From a phage: a stretch of DNA of 64,000 nt. Below, in pieces: positions 7,590-29,649 of this stretch. Location: the sequence record PQ724392.1; one strand, 5' to 3'. Position numbers and translations under genes: made by a program. Each line of letters begins with the position of its first letter. The first letter of the stretch is position 1. The notes beneath the pieces were generated by a model. That model was not told the DNA's origin. It did not search any database and saw only the letters and a list, made by a program, of their open reading frames with translations.

Positions 7590-8336
7590 ATGATTTTATC
7601 CGGAAGAACTGTTGATGAACTCAATGAAAAAGTCCAGGCTGCCTTGGCTAATAATTGGTATTTGTTTGGTTCTACTATGGTGTTGCCGAATACTCCTACG
7701 GATAGCAAAGAGCGTTTTTTCCAAACTATGTCCAGCTCGGAAACTCAGATACCGGGCCCGCCTGGTCCAAAAGGAGACCCGGGTGTACCAGGACCAAAAG
7801 GAGACCCAGGCGGGGATGGAAAGTCTTCTTATCAGATATGGCTTGACTTGGGAAATACAGGAACTGTTGATGATTTTTTAACTGATACAGCAGGAAAGAG
7901 GGAAAAATCCGAGGTGTTTTGGAGTGGTATAAACGTTCTATTAACTAATGGTGTGACTTCAAACATAATTAGTATTTTAAAGGGGATTCCGCCGACTGCA
8001 GGGACTCTATCTCCGTTTTTTAGAACCACTGATGATAAGTTGTGGCCATATAACCAAGACAGAAGCCTAATGTTTAAACTCAACCTTATTGGTAATTTTA
8101 CAGGAGCCTCGCAAGCTCGAAGTATAACATTAAATTTCGTTGGAACCAACGGAAACACTTATATACAGAATCGTCCGGAAAATGCTACAGATATTTTGTC
8201 TTTTACAACGTTCTTTAGCATTGATAAAGATGGGGCAATGGCAACCAATGGTACAGCTATAACTGTTATGCCAAATGGCGGCAACTTTACAATAACCTCT
8301 GCATTGTTAGTAGCCGAACAAACAGTGACTTCATAA
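7590..8336 (+). CDS. collagen-like repeat protein with beta-rich C-terminal domain
   Basis: 248 aa; AAAGGAG RBS; GPPGPKGDPGVPGPKGDPGGDG Gly-X-Y run; only plus-strand gene in the early block. Confidence 0.7.
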   Translation: MILSGRTVDELNEKVQAALANNWYLFGSTMVLPNTPTDSKERFFQTMSSSETQIPGPPGPKGDPGVPGPKGDPGGDGKSSYQIWLDLGNTGTVDDFLTDTAGKREKSEVFWSGINVLLTNGVTSNIISILKGIPPTAGTLSPFFRTTDDKLWPYNQDRSLMFKLNLIGNFTGASQARSITLNFVGTNGNTYIQNRPENATDILSFTTFFSIDKDGAMATNGTAITVMPNGGNFTITSALLVAEQTVTS

Positions 8337-8555: not shown

Positions 8556-9566
8556 TTAACGATAATAGGAATTGTGGTTGTCAAGATATACCTCTTCAAC
8601 AAACTTGTCCCAGAACTTCATGTCCACCTTCGCAGGCATACCGTTCTTAGCAGCCTGGATGGCCAGGACTTCAACTTCATCAACAGTATTTTCCAACAGG
8701 CCTTGAACTACTTTGAAAGGCATATCACCAGCTTTTATTGCTTTAATAATAGAAGCGTTTTTGAGCGGATAAACCAGGTCACCAGTTTGATAGATTTCCT
8801 TCAGCTGATATCCAGCTCGATAAGCATGGCTCAGAGCTTTCCAGTCAATACCTTCATTCGCTTCAGCCTTACGAGCACGTTCACCATATTCGGCATCAAG
8901 TTTATTCAGAGATTGCTTGAGCTCGATTAATGACAAAGTAGTTTGGTATTTACGACCGAGAATAGTATAGAACGTTTGAGGACCTGTTTTCTCATGGTTA
9001 TGAAATATCCATTCACAGAACTCGTTTTCAGGGAGTCTGTGTTTGATATCTTCTACCTTAGTACGTCGTTGCTTAGTAGAACCATCTTCTTGATAATCGA
9101 CCCATTGTTCAGGAATCTGGTTAACAATTTCCAATACACCACGCAGTGCAGCCAATCGAGAACCTTTAACACCATATTTGGAAGCTTGCTTACGGACGTA
9201 CCCCAAATAGGCTTTCATGTTAGTTGTATAGAACCGTGAACGGTTGTCCTGAATAAACTTCCATACATCTGGTAAATCGGATTTGACTACCAGGTCAGCC
9301 GGGGTGTGAATCATATCCAGAGCAACGGTTTCGCCATCGGCCGCCAGTTTAAAGAAATATTTCAGACTATAAAGTTCATGGTCAACATCATCTTTTGTAT
9401 TTTTGGTAGCCGTGTTATTCGTGTTCAGGTTTGTATGATTCATCGCGGTTCCGAGCAGGATATCTCGCGGATGTGGAACAAAGATTTCTTTAAAATCGAC
9501 ATCAGATTCTGGGGTACTTGTTCCATAAAGATGGCTACCGAAGTAGCCTTTCATAACTGTTCTCAT
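8556..9566 (-). CDS. nucleotidyltransferase-fold protein (Pol-beta/MNT-like motif)
   Basis: 336 aa; N-terminal YFGSHLYGTSTPESDVDF (GS, 10 residues, DxD) then helical region. Confidence 0.6.
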   Translation of the reverse strand: MRTVMKGYFGSHLYGTSTPESDVDFKEIFVPHPRDILLGTAMNHTNLNTNNTATKNTKDDVDHELYSLKYFFKLAADGETVALDMIHTPADLVVKSDLPDVWKFIQDNRSRFYTTNMKAYLGYVRKQASKYGVKGSRLAALRGVLEIVNQIPEQWVDYQEDGSTKQRRTKVEDIKHRLPENEFCEWIFHNHEKTGPQTFYTILGRKYQTTLSLIELKQSLNKLDAEYGERARKAEANEGIDWKALSHAYRAGYQLKEIYQTGDLVYPLKNASIIKAIKAGDMPFKVVQGLLENTVDEVEVLAIQAAKNGMPAKVDMKFWDKFVEEVYLDNHNSYYR

Positions 9567-19013: not shown

Positions 19014-19505
19014 TTATTTGTATGCGTCAAAAGTTCCGGTACGGAACGTTTCTATAACTCGTTTGGCTCGGTTCGGAGTCTGGACTTTATACCATCTTGA
19101 GTCCGCCAGTTCCTTGGCAGCCGCTTCCCATGATTTAGCCTTCAGCAATCGCATACCCTTAGGAAAACCAGCAACACCAGCAACACCCATCTGGAATACC
19201 ATATTAATGAGTGCACAACGACGAACTTCATCCAGTACATCATAAACAGGTTTTAAGACAGGATGTCTCAAGATTCCGGCTTTAGCCTTTTCGACCGAAC
19301 GGTTAAACAGTGTTTCGGCTTCGTGCTGGGTTATACGACCATTACAGACACGACCCATGAGCTTATCGAGCTCGGCGCGAGCAACATCTTTAGATGGGTT
19401 CTTAGTTATCAGTTGTCCGATGCCAATGGTCCAATAGCCTTCAGTATCTTTATACAAATCCAACTTACAACCTTCATCTATACGTAACATTTCGAATATA
19501 TTCAT
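19014..19505 (-). CDS. e: Lysozyme (endolysin)
   Basis: 163 aa; [12 protein letters not shown]...[13 protein letters not shown] colinear with T4 lysozyme. Confidence 0.95.
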
Positions 19506-19531: not shown

Positions 19532-19990
19532 TTATCCGAAAATTTGAGTCATTACCTTGTACATCGATTTGCCCATCACATACTGCCATTGACTCGGTTT
19601 AATCAGAGCAAATGCATCGAACTCTGGAACCGAACTACCATCCGGGAAGGTATGATAGGCAGAGCATTTACTATGTCTGAACTGCTCATGCTCGACCGGA
19701 ACCGTGTACAAAAACAGGTGAAGATTTTTGTTATCTGAATAACGGAATTCACCCAGGTCCTTTAAGAATGCCGGGTCGTATTGGGTAAACCCAGTTTCTT
19801 CTTCGGTTTCACGGATAGCCGCTTCAATCGGGGATTCACCAGCTTCAACATGACCCTTGGGGGTGTCCCATTTGTGTGCAGGCATACCTGGTTTACGAGA
19901 ACCAGTCACACGACCCATGAATAACTCTTTATCTTCGGTCATGAAAATAATGCCAGCAGATAATTCTTTCACCTTGTTTTTCTTACTCAT
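19532..19990 (-). CDS. nudE: Nudix hydrolase NudE
   Basis: Nudix box GHVEAGESPIEAAIRETEEETG; start (ATG 19990 vs GTG 20023) uncertain. Confidence 0.75.
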   Translation of the reverse strand: MSKKNKVKELSAGIIFMTEDKELFMGRVTGSRKPGMPAHKWDTPKGHVEAGESPIEAAIRETEEETGFTQYDPAFLKDLGEFRYSDNKNLHLFLYTVPVEHEQFRHSKCSAYHTFPDGSSVPEFDAFALIKPSQWQYVMGKSMYKVMTQIFG

Positions 19991-20219
19991 CGTCACGTTT
20001 CCATGATTGGTTAAAAATATCACTCATTAAAAATTCAAGTCTATTTTCCAATGAAGGGCTTTCACTACTAGAAACTTGAACCATGTAGTCAGAAATAGGT
20101 CGGAACATATCCAAGTCAGTTTCTAAATCATCTTTGATTTTCTCTTCTGGTGTTCCAGTGTCATAGGAATACAGATAAGAATCACATGACTCGGATTTAA
20201 TATAAATTGCAATACTCAT
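19983..20219 (-). CDS. hypothetical acidic protein
   Basis: 78-aa ORF. Confidence 0.45.
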   Translation of the reverse strand: MSIAIYIKSESCDSYLYSYDTGTPEEKIKDDLETDLDMFRPISDYMVQVSSSESPSLENRLEFLMSDIFNQSWKRDDE

Positions 20220-20803
20220 TTACGGCATTCCTCAATAAAGGAGTTCAATGTATTTTTCTTAGTGATATCGTCATATACCTTTTTAACTTTAGAAATACGA
20301 AAAGGTACTTCAATAACCATAGTCCATAAAAATGATGCAATAAGCCCAGCGAGAGCAGTAGAAAAGCACGCACCCATTACAGCTACAGGTGCTTCATTTT
20401 TGCCTGTCAAGAAAAACCACAGGAATGGTAAAAATAAGATTCCAGCCCAGGCATAAAACCTGGAACAAATTAACTTATCAAATTCATCACTCCAGGTACG
20501 AAATCCATATTTCTTGCTATAAGAAATTAATGGGTCGGGTGTCTGTTCTTTGAGCGGTTCTGGTTGATGCCCATTAATGATGTATCCCATTTTATATTCC
20601 TTAATTAAAAGCTCTTTCACATGACGATTGCATCGCGACCAATCAACATTTTCCACCTTGATTCCTTCATCACCATCATCAAGGTTCGCCCAATATTTTT
20701 TGGTAATCATAAATTCATCTCTTGATACAATTATACCTGCATTTTCTGCCCGGCGGATGAAGTTTACATCAACACCCATGCACCCGGGCTCATAAAGGGC
20801 CAT
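20216..20803 (-). CDS. membrane protein with FIEECRK C-terminal tail
   Basis: 195 aa; TM helices in C-terminal half. Confidence 0.55.
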   Translation of the reverse strand: MALYEPGCMGVDVNFIRRAENAGIIVSRDEFMITKKYWANLDDGDEGIKVENVDWSRCNRHVKELLIKEYKMGYIINGHQPEPLKEQTPDPLISYSKKYGFRTWSDEFDKLICSRFYAWAGILFLPFLWFFLTGKNEAPVAVMGACFSTALAGLIASFLWTMVIEVPFRISKVKKVYDDITKKNTLNSFIEECRK

Positions 20804-21489
20804 TACCAGCCCTCCATAGGGAATTCCAGATATACTTGAGCATTAACGCGGATTTCATTTGTAATCTTTTTAACACGGTCAGTATTACGAGACACACGAC
20901 CAAACCAGCGCCACCCGTTACTTACTGCGCGAGAACCTGTATGCCATGTCTGCCAATCAAACTGGAGCAATGTGCGGTCAGGAGCATCCCACTTGGTTAA
21001 TTCATTGGACTCAATTTTTTCCAGAACTTCTTTATGCCACTGACGATAGATAAGTTCGCCTTCAGGAATCTGACTAAATTGCGCAGTTCCGGTTGCAAAA
21101 TAAGTAGGACACACATCAGCGTTAACAAGACCAAGAATATGTTCAGAATGGTAACGAGGATTATCATAATCAGGTTGCCCTGCAGTAATAAAGTGTTGAC
21201 CAACCGGAATATCCGGGCGTGGTACATCGTCATGGTGATAACCTGGGATAGCAGGATACCAACCAGGCATCAGCATATGAACCCGAGAATCAAATACAAC
21301 CTGGTCGGTGTTCCAATCATCCGGCAAACTCATGATAAAGCTACGAGTAATAGGACCGCCATTGTCAAAAGCGAAAGCCAATGAGCTGTTGAAGAACATA
21401 GTTTCGTTTTTGATTTTATCATTAGAAATTTTACCAGCGAAACTGCCTACTGCATGAGCTTGAGAATTAAAAGTTTTTGGACCGTTCAT
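20803..21489 (-). CDS. hypothetical protein
   Basis: 228 aa, Trp/His-rich. Confidence 0.55.
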   Translation of the reverse strand: MNGPKTFNSQAHAVGSFAGKISNDKIKNETMFFNSSLAFAFDNGGPITRSFIMSLPDDWNTDQVVFDSRVHMLMPGWYPAIPGYHHDDVPRPDIPVGQHFITAGQPDYDNPRYHSEHILGLVNADVCPTYFATGTAQFSQIPEGELIYRQWHKEVLEKIESNELTKWDAPDRTLLQFDWQTWHTGSRAVSNGWRWFGRVSRNTDRVKKITNEIRVNAQVYLEFPMEGW

Positions 21490-21548
21490 AATATTTTCCT
21501 CATTGATTGTGGGACCATTGTGTCATAGTCCCACTTAGATGTACATAC

Positions 21549-22508
21549 TTATTTTGTGAAAGGACGAATTAAATGCTGGTTAGCTTTGAAACGTTTAACA
21601 TAGTCTTCGTGACCCAGGGTGTTGTACATATTAACCACTTCCTGGTAATGTTCCCAGGCATACTCGCGGAACCATCCAGAAGTAATGGAGGTGCAGACTT
21701 TTTCCAGCGCAATATGGAAGCTCACGGATGGAGAGATATTGAACTCATTGGGAACCTGCGAACGCTCCAGAGCGAGTACACATGCTTCTTCATAAACCCC
21801 TGCCAGTTTAATAATCTCAGGGAGTGCTTCAAATTTTTCACGCGAGGTCATAACTTCTGAATCATCCTTCATATAGAACTTATATGCAGGCTTATCAGCA
21901 AGCGCCACGGCCTCGTGGATGGAGTCATGGTCAAGGGTATAGATTGTATCATTAAAGAAAGTTTTCTTGCCCACGTCTAGTTTAGGGTGGCTATACGACA
22001 ATGTTTCTGCCTGGCGCTGCAGCATGATTTTCTGCAGTTCATCATTAAGAACAACACCCTTATTGCGAAGGTAATTAATATGACTCATGGTCTTCAGGAA
22101 GAATGGATTGTTCTTCAGGTAACGATGAGACAGTTTAATTGCCAGACAAATATCAGGAGTCGCCCAATAGAAACCTGTAAGACGGTCTTTCTTAATATGA
22201 TTTTCAGCGTATTTCAAGAGACGATAACTTGAGGTGAAATCTTCATCTTGAAGCTCACCAGTAATTTCTCGTACGTTAGTCAGGGCACGGACAATATAAG
22301 CTTCAAAATAGGTTTCTTTTCCATTGTACATACATTTAAAAGCTTGGACATCAGGGTTATCCACAGGAACATGAGCACCGAACATACGTGCTTTAAAGTG
22401 GTTCCAGGAGCCCTGGTCAGCGATAAAGTCCCAATCAGAGTTTTCAATTTTCTGACTTTCAATCAGACCAGCGTTATGTAATGCACGAGAACCAATAACT
22501 AACATCAT
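21549..22508 (-). CDS. hypothetical protein with possible nucleotidyltransferase-like N-terminus
   Basis: 319 aa; VIGSRAL...NSDWDFIA (GS then S-D-x-D). Confidence 0.55.
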   Translation of the reverse strand: MMLVIGSRALHNAGLIESQKIENSDWDFIADQGSWNHFKARMFGAHVPVDNPDVQAFKCMYNGKETYFEAYIVRALTNVREITGELQDEDFTSSYRLLKYAENHIKKDRLTGFYWATPDICLAIKLSHRYLKNNPFFLKTMSHINYLRNKGVVLNDELQKIMLQRQAETLSYSHPKLDVGKKTFFNDTIYTLDHDSIHEAVALADKPAYKFYMKDDSEVMTSREKFEALPEIIKLAGVYEEACVLALERSQVPNEFNISPSVSFHIALEKVCTSITSGWFREYAWEHYQEVVNMYNTLGHEDYVKRFKANQHLIRPFTK

Positions 22509-22521
22509 AATATTTTCCTCA

Positions 22522-23324: not shown

Positions 23325-23552
23325 TTATTTTCCTAACGAAATACGAGTAGGTTTTTTACCGAAATATTCTTCATAGGAACCATCTAAACGACCCGCTTTA
23401 GACCGACAATACGAATCATACTTTTTGTAATAAGTCAACTCGTTATTATAACGTGGATGTCTATCAGCCATAATAATACTTAATGGCCAACCTTTGGCAT
23501 AATCACGAAGACCATTTATTTTACGAATATATCTTTTCTTTAATTTTAGCAT
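23325..23552 (-). CDS. small basic hypothetical protein
   Basis: 75-aa ORF. Confidence 0.45.
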   Translation of the reverse strand: MLKLKKRYIRKINGLRDYAKGWPLSIIMADRHPRYNNELTYYKKYDSYCRSKAGRLDGSYEEYFGKKPTRISLGK

Positions 23553-23770
23553 GAGCTCGGGTGCCAGATTTTACCGTCAGGTTGAGCAACGAAGGTACGA
23601 CCAGCTTCTTCACCATAACAAGAGCTGTTCAGCCAGTCTTCAAGACGAACCTCACCATCATATTCGTCAAGCTCAATACCGAAATCTTGAGCGTTAGCCA
23701 TATCTTTTACTTTCTTATACAATGCAGCCAGTTCAAGTGCTGCTTTTTCTAATTCATTAATATCAGACAT
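23546..23770 (-). CDS. small acidic hypothetical protein
   Basis: 74-aa ORF. Confidence 0.45.
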   Translation of the reverse strand: MSDINELEKAALELAALYKKVKDMANAQDFGIELDEYDGEVRLEDWLNSSCYGEEAGRTFVAQPDGKIWHPSSC

Positions 23771-23779
23771 TTTTATTCC

Positions 23780-23992
23780 TTAGCATTCGTAAGAGGATGA
23801 TACCCAAGAGGTACCACTAATAGTAATACAACCGTTATAAAGCGTGATATGTCGTTCTAAGTCACGAACACCATCAATGTAGATATCAGCTTCTTCGCGT
23901 TCTTCTTTACAAATCTGGATAACGTTTTCAATAGCTGCCGCGGCAGTACGGATTGCACAATCTAATTCACGAGACATATAATTCCTTAACAT
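23780..23992 (-). CDS. small protein, WVSSSxxC-tail family member 1
   Basis: 70 aa ending WVSSSYEC. Confidence 0.5.
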   Translation of the reverse strand: MLRNYMSRELDCAIRTAAAAIENVIQICKEEREEADIYIDGVRDLERHITLYNGCITISGTSWVSSSYEC

Positions 23993-24267
23993 TCAGAAGA
24001 GGAGGACACCCAACCGCCATTTTCCAGGTCAGTTGTATAGTCATGAGTGTTAACAATAGCCCATTCAGGATGGCCATGTTCTTCCCAATGGGCAAGGTCA
24101 GCTTTCAAGGCACCAGGAGAATAATAGTCACCGCCCATACCGCGAGCAGGGTATATATTAAAATGAGTCTCATATTTGTTTGCAATTTCCTCGGCACGAC
24201 GAATAGCTTTATGGATATCATTTACTGCGTTAGCCAGTTCTTTATTTTTACGGTAATCATTCATCAT
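23986..24267 (-). CDS. small protein, WVSSSxxC-tail family member 2
   Basis: 93 aa ending WVSSSSEC. Confidence 0.5.
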   Translation of the reverse strand: MMNDYRKNKELANAVNDIHKAIRRAEEIANKYETHFNIYPARGMGGDYYSPGALKADLAHWEEHGHPEWAIVNTHDYTTDLENGGWVSSSSEC

Positions 24268-24276
24268 AGCGTTTCC

Positions 24277-24567
24277 TTAGCACATTGCCGAAGAGGAGAC
24301 CCAAGCACCAACTGTAACGACACCGTTTTCAACTTCGCCGCCGTTGTTTTCAATTTCATCTTTAAACCACTGGGAGCACTCATAACCGACAGGATAATAT
24401 GTACGGCCTGAACCATAATCACCGGTACCGAATTGGATACCATATTCATCTGCGATTTCTTCACAGTGTTTTTCAATTTCAGAGGTCTTATTTAGAAGAG
24501 AATAGATAGCTTTTTCTGCAGATTTCTCATCATAATACTTGGGGATAGCAATTTCAATTTTATTCAT
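24277..24567 (-). CDS. small protein, WVSSSxxC-tail family member 3
   Basis: 96 aa ending WVSSSAMC. Confidence 0.5.
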   Translation of the reverse strand: MNKIEIAIPKYYDEKSAEKAIYSLLNKTSEIEKHCEEIADEYGIQFGTGDYGSGRTYYPVGYECSQWFKDEIENNGGEVENGVVTVGAWVSSSAMC

Positions 24568-24917
24568 GATTTACATTCCTTAATAAAGGTTTCAAGGTCA
24601 TTACGTTTTGTTTTGTCTAGGAACTTATTATACTCAGCCATTGCTGAAGCATATCTCTTCCGACTAGGAGCATTCACGGCGTTTGTGTGACAAATATCAT
24701 ACACAACCGGGATAAAATAAGCCACAACAGCCGGAGCGATTATCATAAAGAAACCCATCTCAATGGGCATGACTCCCTCGATTGCAGCCATAACCGTGGT
24801 CATTACCAGACCAACCAAACCACCGAGCATACCGGTGACAATTCCCAATAATAAATTGCCGCCAATATCATATTCAGCCAATTGATAAACATGTGATGCA
24901 AGACTAGGCCGTTCCAT
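24564..24917 (-). CDS. membrane protein (2 TM) with FIKECKS tail
   Basis: ATG 24917 with AAGGAGG RBS. Confidence 0.5.
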   Translation of the reverse strand: MERPSLASHVYQLAEYDIGGNLLLGIVTGMLGGLVGLVMTTVMAAIEGVMPIEMGFFMIIAPAVVAYFIPVVYDICHTNAVNAPSRKRYASAMAEYNKFLDKTKRNDLETFIKECKS

Positions 24918-25299
24918 TACGAACCTCCTTAATAAATTCTTCGGCACATTTAATTTTGTGCTCTTCTTGTAGGGAAACACATTTTTGTTCCCACTCTTTA
25001 ACTCGCCCACGATATCCTTTATTCATATGATTTTGATGCCACACATTTATCAATATCATACTCAGGACCGTAATAAAAGGAGCTGCGATTATTAGCGCCC
25101 AGGCAACTCCAACACTGATGATATCCATATCCCCACAAAGCACCATCATTATAACCCCAACGATGCACATGGACAAAGCTCCAAATGGAGGCATAAGGTC
25201 TTTATCAATCTTGTCTGCGTATACAAATTTTTCTGGTTTACTTGGCAGATATAGCGTTCGCATTTTGAACCCCTTTAGCATATTCACGACATTCAGCAA
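24904..25299 (-). CDS. membrane protein (2 TM) with FIKEVR tail
   Basis: 131-aa ORF. Confidence 0.5.
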   Translation of the reverse strand: MLNVVNMLKGFKMRTLYLPSKPEKFVYADKIDKDLMPPFGALSMCIVGVIMMVLCGDMDIISVGVAWALIIAAPFITVLSMILINVWHQNHMNKGYRGRVKEWEQKCVSLQEEHKIKCAEEFIKEVRNGTA

Positions 25300-25810
25300 T
25301 AAAACGATTAAGCTTACGTTTCCGTTTACGACCCTCTAATGTATACTCAGCCGCCAAATCAAGAAGCTCATCTTTATCATAATTTTTAATATCAGTATAA
25401 GTTGGGCGGCGGTCAACCATTCCAAAGTGGTCACCATTTTCCAACATCAAATAACACACCAAATGGTCATCATCGTCCGCATTAATAAGCTGCTTATAAT
25501 CACTTGGTTCATTTAACGCATACACAGAATAACTCAGCCCAGCGAATTCCACTCGTTGAATACCCAGATTTACGTCAATAATTTCCAAGGCATCTGCAAA
25601 AGAAAGGTCTTCAGCTAAAGCAAAAATAAAAGGCAATTTGGTAGTATCGCCGCGACTTGTTGTTCTTCTTAAGAAATCATTGGAATAGCCCAAGTCGCGT
25701 CGGATTCTATAAAGAACTGTGTTAGTTTCAGTGGCAAGACCACTACCGCCAAACCATTCCACATTTGATAAAAGATTATCATATAAAGTCATAATTTTCT
25801 CCTCTCCCAA
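25238..25810 (-). CDS. hypothetical protein with FIAECR C-terminal motif
   Basis: 190-aa ORF; start may be internal. Confidence 0.5.
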   Translation of the reverse strand: MGEEKIMTLYDNLLSNVEWFGGSGLATETNTVLYRIRRDLGYSNDFLRRTTSRGDTTKLPFIFALAEDLSFADALEIIDVNLGIQRVEFAGLSYSVYALNEPSDYKQLINADDDDHLVCYLMLENGDHFGMVDRRPTYTDIKNYDKDELLDLAAEYTLEGRKRKRKLNRFIAECREYAKGVQNANAISAK

Positions 25811-29496: not shown

Positions 29497-29573
29497 TGGT
29501 CGGGGTGGTGGGATTCTAACCCACAACCTACGGTTTAGAAGACCGTTGCTCTATACAATTGAGCTACACCCCG
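29497..29573 (-). tRNA. tRNA-Arg (anticodon UCU), CCA encoded
   Basis: hand-folded cloverleaf: 7-bp acceptor, D-stem GCTC/GAGC, anticodon loop CTTCTAA, T-arm GTGGG-TTAGAAT-CCCAC. Confidence 0.8.
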
Positions 29574-29575
29574 GG

Positions 29576-29649
29576 TGGCCCCATCCGGACTTGAACCGGA
29601 AACCTGCCAGTTATGAGCCGGATGCTCTAACCAATTGAGCTACAGGGCC
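29576..29649 (-). tRNA. tRNA with CAU anticodon (Met or Ile-lysidine type)
   Basis: hand-folded cloverleaf: acceptor GGCCCTG/TGGGGCC, T-arm TCCGG-TTCAAGT-CCGGA; abuts tRNA-Arg. Confidence 0.75.

Follow-up and report, generated by a model that had tools for sequence, protein, structure and literature searches.

Comparative analysis of the gene at positions 21549-22508 (minus strand) of a phage DNA segment points to an undescribed two-part phage module, in which a predicted nucleotidyltransferase of the DNA polymerase beta (Pol-beta) type would be coupled with small proteins bearing a common C-terminal tail. It is the recurrence of this pairing across very different phages, together with the same W-x-S-S-S-x-x-Cys tail in the small proteins, that points to such a module. 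By the window we mean the whole 64,000-nucleotide stretch of record PQ724392.1 that was analysed.

The window is a segment of a T4-like phage, with homologs of T4 lysozyme (19014-19505) and of NudE (19532-20023). The target gene encodes a 319-aa protein starting MMLVIGSRALHNAGLIESQKIENSDWDFIAD and is tightly packed within a long co-directional run of early-type genes. Direct reading of the sequence revealed a ribosome-binding site, GAGGAAAA, at 22513-22520 (minus strand), 5-12 nt before the start codon, and the stop codon of the preceding gene 14 nt upstream, a packing typical of T4-like phages. A scan for promoters and terminators gave signal at background level and was uninformative. Downstream lies a gene for a 228-aa protein (20803-21489, minus strand, phrog_1843) without Pfam or NCBIfam matches, conserved beside the target in T4-like relatives and in few other lineages; it was considered as a partner and rejected, being present in only two first-pass lineages, below the cut of three groups. 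The gap between the two genes measures only 59 bp in the window (21490-21548), versus an extra 75-aa CDS at the same place in Escherichia phage P896 (L001, 7027-7251), which indicates a small indel polymorphism right beside the target.

According to the ORF list and the Pfam and PHROG searches, the protein is a full-length member of an already catalogued family. It matched DUF7277 over residues 2-101 (E = 4.5e-26) and DUF7275 over residues 120-305 (E = 1e-75), the higher score being 254.3 bits and the lower 91.8, both above the curated cut-off of 27; PHROG 2141 ('unknown function') was matched over residues 1-319 (E = 2e-147). These were the only Pfam matches at E <= 1; NCBIfam returned none, and PDB sequences, queried with the protein alone or with its family profile, yielded only spurious matches to PsaB. 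The one PADLOC match, to a CARF/HEPN model, was dismissed as weak (E = 0.012, 12 bits). The two DUFs and the PHROG carry no functional annotation, and nearly all phage records call the homologs hypothetical. Since the family is catalogued and two Acinetobacter phage records already label the homolog 'putative nucleotidyltransferase', the nucleotidyltransferase call alone is a confirmation and not a discovery. Literature searches on DUF7277/DUF7275, PHROG 2141 or the pairing with tail-bearing small proteins found nothing relevant.

The original prediction described an ORF of 319 aa with a G-S followed 17 residues later by S-D-x-D, read as a stretched nucleotidyltransferase motif; the ORF and its residues are exactly as described, and structure prediction supports the reading. 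Modelling predicts a nucleotidyltransferase fold with an intact catalytic motif. On the basis of predicted secondary structure and structural matches, the N-terminal core domain was placed at residues 1-105 (22194-22508, minus strand), with strand 2-5, helix 6-12, strand 26-31, helix 32-41 and strands 45-47, 54-61 and 64-73. This predicted alpha/beta core is superimposable on solved nucleotidyltransferases, namely MenT1, which was the best match, ANT(2''), MenT3, TM1012, MenT4, JHP933 and LnuA.

The hG[GS] element corresponds to V-I-G6-S7 (G6-S7 at 22488-22493), situated in the model at the turn from strand 2-5 to helix 6-12, and the [DE]h[DE]h element to D25-W-D27-F, where the predicted metal-binding D25-W-D27 (22428-22436) opens strand 26-31. 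E69 (22302-22304), on predicted strand 64-73, is by sequence and strand placement a candidate third catalytic carboxylate. All five residues were invariant in an alignment of 59 diverse homologs. The broader set of 90 unique homologs was drawn from phage isolates, IMG/VR contigs, Logan/ENA assemblies and metagenome-assembled genomes (MAGs), and includes actinophage, roseophage and jumbo-phage members; there, G6 and S7 were conserved in 87/87 and both aspartates in 88/88 of the aligned residues, while position 69 was E in 80 and D in 3 (83/90). Even the shortened 263-aa homolog of a Gordonia phage retains 'VIGS ... DFD'. As far as sequence conservation tells, the G-S ... D-x-D pattern in this family is far beyond chance. 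The spacing between S and D is 17 residues in the target and shorter in many members of the 59-sequence alignment, so that 'stretched' was a fair description of what is in itself a canonical motif. Many proteins of this fold are pseudoenzymes and the activity of the target is predicted only, yet pseudoenzymes usually lose the G-S/D-x-D/E set, which is invariant here in 90 homologs from a family of 1,614 clusters; we therefore regard a catalytically inert protein with a scaffold or binding role only as the least probable of the readings discussed here.

A second part of the original prediction, that two such genes in one accessory region would be notable, did not hold in itself. The gene at 8556-9566 (minus strand), with which the target had been likened, encodes the homolog of T-even NrdC.11, of the RlaP family (PF10127). 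Pairwise comparison excluded a detectable kinship of the two proteins (BLASTP E = 2.2; profile-profile probability in hhalign 0.1%), and the target gave no PF10127 match in Pfam either, which places it outside RlaP/NrdC.11. Both share the superfamily, the N-terminal G-S ... D-x-D motif and the kind of genome region, i.e. early accessory genes of T4-like phages; they differ in belonging to separate Pfam families and in that T4 has nrdC.11 and not the target gene, no member of the target family being present in the 135 kb of T4 searched. The 'two nucleotidyltransferases' of the window are thus separate branches of one huge superfamily, and their co-occurrence in a 170-kb phage is not notable by itself. 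Public phage records often name the homologs of the 8556-9566 protein 'thioredoxin', a name apparently carried over in annotation from the adjacent nrdC gene, and one record has 'HNH homing endonuclease'. Adjoining nrdC.11, and oriented against the early genes around it, is a 248-aa ORF (7590-8336, plus strand) with a short collagen-like Gly-X-Y run (GPPGPKGDPGVPGPKGDPGGDG).

The closest relatives of the target were found in T4-like phages: a hypothetical protein of phage P896 (Gaprivervirus; 99.4% identity) and the proteins of VR7 (94%), JS98 (91%) and RB69 (ORF134c, 73%). Searched exhaustively with HMMER, 1.84 billion cluster representatives yielded 1,614 clusters (50% identity) at E <= 1e-3, 570 of them at E <= 1e-30; among the matches listed (150 of the 1,614 clusters) almost all were about 300 aa long and shared one architecture from end to end. 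The hosts of the family are T4-like, phAPEC8-like, Otagovirus-like, jumbo, Acinetobacter and actinobacterial phages. A scan of cellular genomes from 185,579 species, anchored on the enzyme, recovered only five loci, all on MAG contigs that are probably phage, and the family is essentially confined to phages. In the most divergent homologs, from Gordonia phage Cucurbita (L003), Streptomyces phage BillNye (L006) and roseophage DSS3_VP1 (L007), the N-terminal domain is shortened or the whole protein is shorter (263 and 248 aa in the actinophages). Their neighbourhoods contain, respectively, a tRNA cluster, a polynucleotide kinase, and an RNA ligase 2 with a phosphoesterase.

The small tail-bearing proteins of the window are encoded by four genes at 23546-24567, the only place in the 64 kb where the family occurs, all on the minus strand. 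In order of approach to the target, these are a 96-aa protein ending ...GAWVSSSAMC-stop (24277-24567; phrog_899; family HMM E = 4e-31), a 93-aa protein ending ...GGWVSSSSEC-stop (23986-24267; phrog_899; E = 4e-23), a 70-aa protein ending ...SWVSSSYEC-stop (23780-23992; phrog_4882; E = 1e-8) and a 74-aa protein with an internal WLNSSC and the end ...IWHPSSC-stop (23546-23770), assigned by its tail motif and by phrog_899 (E = 2e-9). The family, equivalent to phrog_899 and phrog_4882 and without a Pfam entry, consists of short acidic proteins (median length 86 aa, median pI 4.4) present in one to five copies per locus. Their sequences are strongly diverged, with a mean pairwise column identity of 23% and only the W, S-S and terminal C invariant. 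Of 191 unique members, 183 end exactly in Cys; the logo of these tails reads G(-10) G(-9) W(-8, 158/183) x S(-6, 122) S(-5, 168) S(-4, 156) x x C(-1), and in 82 of the 183 the terminal Cys is the sole one. Many members also have in common an internal 'YG-x-G-x-TYYP' element.

A different C-terminal element, F-I-x-E-C-[RK], is common to the ORFs at 20216-20803, 24564-25010, 24904-25299 and 25238-25810 (all minus strand), with ends such as ...SFIEECRK, ...TFIKECKS, ...RFIAECREYAKG and the variant ...EFIKEVRNGTA. Hydrophobic, membrane-like stretches occur in at least three of them; judged from these sequences, they may represent another paralogous family of small membrane proteins in the accessory region.

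Linkage of the two gene families was assessed at 88 loci with a target homolog, where ORFs were called in flanks of up to 10 kb and all neighbours were clustered; a 55% cut on target identity divided the loci into 20 groups. A profile of the small family built from tail-motif seeds matched 188 ORFs, every one of them (188/188) on the strand of the target. It was positive in 14/20 groups, with the small gene nearly always within 1.5 kb upstream and often at 3-100 bp. Two profile-negative groups do have a member, ending '...SSWVQSSC' in one (L034) and, about 40 bp upstream of the enzyme, '...NWDSSTC' in the other (L054), and a small tail-bearing gene is thus found upstream on the same strand in at least 16/20 groups. 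The five MAG loci all had an ORF with the tail motif directly upstream of the enzyme gene (e.g. 16 bp, abutting and 9 bp). Reverse look-up from the small family gave the same picture: eight of eight distant members supported the pairing, seven of them having a gene with PF23942 and PF23940 at 0.8-1.7 kb downstream on the same strand, and the contig of the eighth stopping inside an ORF reading MLVIGSRALEHHGL...SDWDFIAD. In several lineages the start and stop codons of the two genes abut or nearly overlap, and in the database protein P0348 the two products are joined in frame, by fusion or read-through, '...SQWNSSGGPAC' being followed by 7 residues and then 'LLIGSGALEH...'. Both families are absent from T4 in the same search of 135 kb.

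These data bear on the alternative of a small-molecule nucleotidyltransferase of the ANT(2'')/Lnu type, which would adenylylate a metabolite, an antibiotic or a signalling molecule, the small proteins being unrelated passengers of the early block. We consider it quite unlikely, as the pairing persists across unrelated phage groups while every other neighbour changes, and as the abutting or nearly overlapping codons, the reverse look-up (8/8) and the joint absence from T4 all speak for a connection. ANT(2'')-Ia (AadB, PDB 4xje) and LnuA (4wh5) show no sequence relationship with the target, which is found in a phage context with a protein partner, and nothing suggests an antibiotic substrate.

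The pair is not always adjacent, since four unrelated small genes (about 1 kb) lie between the small-protein array and the target in the window, and a helix-turn-helix (HTH) gene separates the two in some lineages. Four loci of one phage lineage, on Logan/ENA contigs (L091-L093 and L096), have an HTH_37 (PF13744) gene in this position, about 0.3-0.7 kb upstream of the nucleotidyltransferase-like gene; a 143-181-aa protein ending '...CEWEESASEYDYGWDL', a weak match to the small-family profile in which the terminal Cys is absent, also intervenes there, at the same 0.3-0.7 kb. No recognisable small partner was present, among the 88 loci, in two actinophages, a roseophage and three loci of one other group, so the enzyme apparently can function alone in some phages; one further negative locus has just 354 bp of upstream sequence. 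The enzyme and the small proteins could belong together merely as parts of the same conserved block of early genes.

No large gene was a consistent neighbour across the 20 groups. Clusters named RNR-like, NAMPT-like, Rnl1-like and Pnkp-like, by sequence recognition or record annotations and not by Pfam scans, occurred in only 5-6/20 groups and kilobases away. Linkage to RNA repair or NAD salvage (Rnl1-like, Pnkp-like, Rnl2, NAMPT-like) was accordingly rejected as recurrent but weak, such distant neighbours being expected in shared early-gene blocks. Linkage to tRNA genes, prompted by phage Cucurbita and by the tRNA pair of the window, was rejected as well, with a tRNA in the flank of only 6/20 groups. 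The pair in question, tRNA-Arg(TCT) and tRNA-Met(CAT), abutting at 29497-29649 (minus strand), lies about 7 kb upstream of the target on the same strand and is a far smaller set than the eight tRNAs of T4.

The main rival to a module acting on protein is suggested by the best structural match, MenT1 (PDB 8an4), a toxin with a small upstream antitoxin, MenA1 (PMC10435456). The target would then be a MenT-like RNA or tRNA 3'-end nucleotidyltransferase that remodels or shuts off host translation or mends tRNA ends, and the small proteins would be MenA1-like inhibitors or regulators placed over the active site, not substrates. We hold this to be unlikely, for several reasons. The target has no sequence or Pfam relationship with MenT/AbiEii, giving no match to DUF1814 (PF08843) at E <= 1 and to no AbiE/MenT model of PADLOC. 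Membership in DUF1814 is defined by four signature motifs, including the DUF1814-specific motif IV. The target has a canonical D-x-D where MenT toxins carry a catalytic [ST]-x-D, complemented by Lys and Asp from the C-terminal lobe (T39, D41, K137 and D152 in MenT1; PMC10435456), and its helical lobe, of about 215 aa, is much larger than that of MenT. MenT toxins belong to chromosomal toxin-antitoxin loci, in contrast to the target, which is encoded by lytic phages, with tRNA genes flanking it in few groups (6/20) and RNA-repair neighbours in at most 5/20, kilobases off. Its partners are unrelated to MenA, and for a simple antitoxin it would be odd to come as one to five paralogs that diversify but keep their terminal tail invariant.

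The C-terminal helical domain (DUF7275; residues 106-319, 21552-22193, minus strand) is marked by invariant residues: K125, H128, K139, R165, H194-D195, H198, E240-E241, E248-R249 and G278. Fold comparison of this lobe gave no solved relative. H128 ... D193-H194-D195 ... H198 prompted a comparison with HD-domain phosphohydrolases, which was rejected, the HD fold with its H...HD...D metal site not being found. By position in the model, on the first helix of the lobe, the invariant K125 is a plausible equivalent of the catalytic Lys of MenT1.

The reading we tentatively prefer, while giving it somewhat less than an even chance, is that the enzyme works with the small proteins encoded upstream, whose tail docks in the cleft between the lobes and receives a nucleoside monophosphate (NMP) on a serine. 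The target would be an early-expressed, phage-specific member of the Pol-beta-like superfamily, bilobed as are MenT/AbiEii toxins and ANT(2'')/Lnu resistance enzymes. Its N-terminal core, through G6-S7, D25-x-D27 and E69, would bind an NTP and two Mg2+ ions, and the DUF7275 lobe, rich in invariant Lys, Arg, His, Asp and Glu, would line the cleft on the side that binds the acceptor. The small proteins, whose bodies are free to diverge while all end G-G-W-x-S-S-S-x-x-Cys-COOH, would insert the tail there, and NMP would pass to a tail hydroxyl, most likely of Ser(-5), the best candidate because it is the most conserved serine of the tail. The transfer would mark or activate the small proteins; alternatively, within the same model, the tail may recruit or gate the enzyme. 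The analysis shows the predicted fold, the conserved catalytic residues, the confinement to phages and the gene linkage. What we infer is an active enzyme, physical contact between the two proteins, and a tail that serves as acceptor and is recognised by the invariant C-lobe; the uncertainty is mostly about the chemistry and less about the partnership. With more reserve, we also see as possible an enzyme-substrate or enzyme-adaptor system in which the tail serine is O-nucleotidylylated, possibly on the way to dehydroalanine or lanthionine with the terminal Cys, or in which the tail is a handle by which the paralogs steer the enzyme to different host targets.

Precedents for such transfer are provided by GlnE, GlnD, MntA (HEPN-MNT) and DrrA, enzymes of the Pol-beta fold that place AMP or UMP on a hydroxyl of a partner protein; MntA is encoded next to its target. 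All four modify Tyr, unlike the C-terminal tail Ser proposed here, and none was among the top structural matches of the target model. To our knowledge, no Pol-beta-fold enzyme nucleotidylylates a C-terminal Ser-rich tail.

A more elaborate chemistry, suggested by analogy, would make the enzyme a protein Ser-activating one: the tail Ser would be nucleotidylylated, beta-elimination would follow, and the terminal Cys would attack the dehydroalanine to close a C-terminal lanthionine-type ring, in a RiPP-like manner but on folded small proteins. The invariant S-S and the terminal Cys stand 3-4 residues apart, the latter being the sole Cys in 82/183 members; tandem paralogous 'precursors' adjoin one enzyme; and the second invariant acid/base set of the C-lobe (H194-D195, H198, E240-E241, E248-R249) is more than acceptor binding seems to need. 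It is nevertheless a very doubtful proposition, a pure analogy in which the conserved part would be the core and the variable part the body, opposite to typical RiPP precursors, and the C-lobe has no fold similarity to known lyases or cyclases. We know of no lanthionine pathway with a Pol-beta nucleotidyltransferase. This reading, the ANT/Lnu-like one and the pseudoenzyme are each less likely.

Through the conserved pairing, two sets of 'hypothetical proteins' become a single candidate functional module, and the predicted fold with its intact active site offers a concrete, testable biochemical handle on a large phage family. What appears new is a widespread, phage-specific Pol-beta nucleotidyltransferase whose acceptor lobe and class of protein partner are both novel. 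Should the tail prove to be a modification site or a docking handle, the module would represent a new kind of protein-directed nucleotidyl transfer among the early functions of phages, in which activities for host takeover and anti-defence are concentrated, and would account for the constancy of the last eight residues in small proteins that otherwise diversify.
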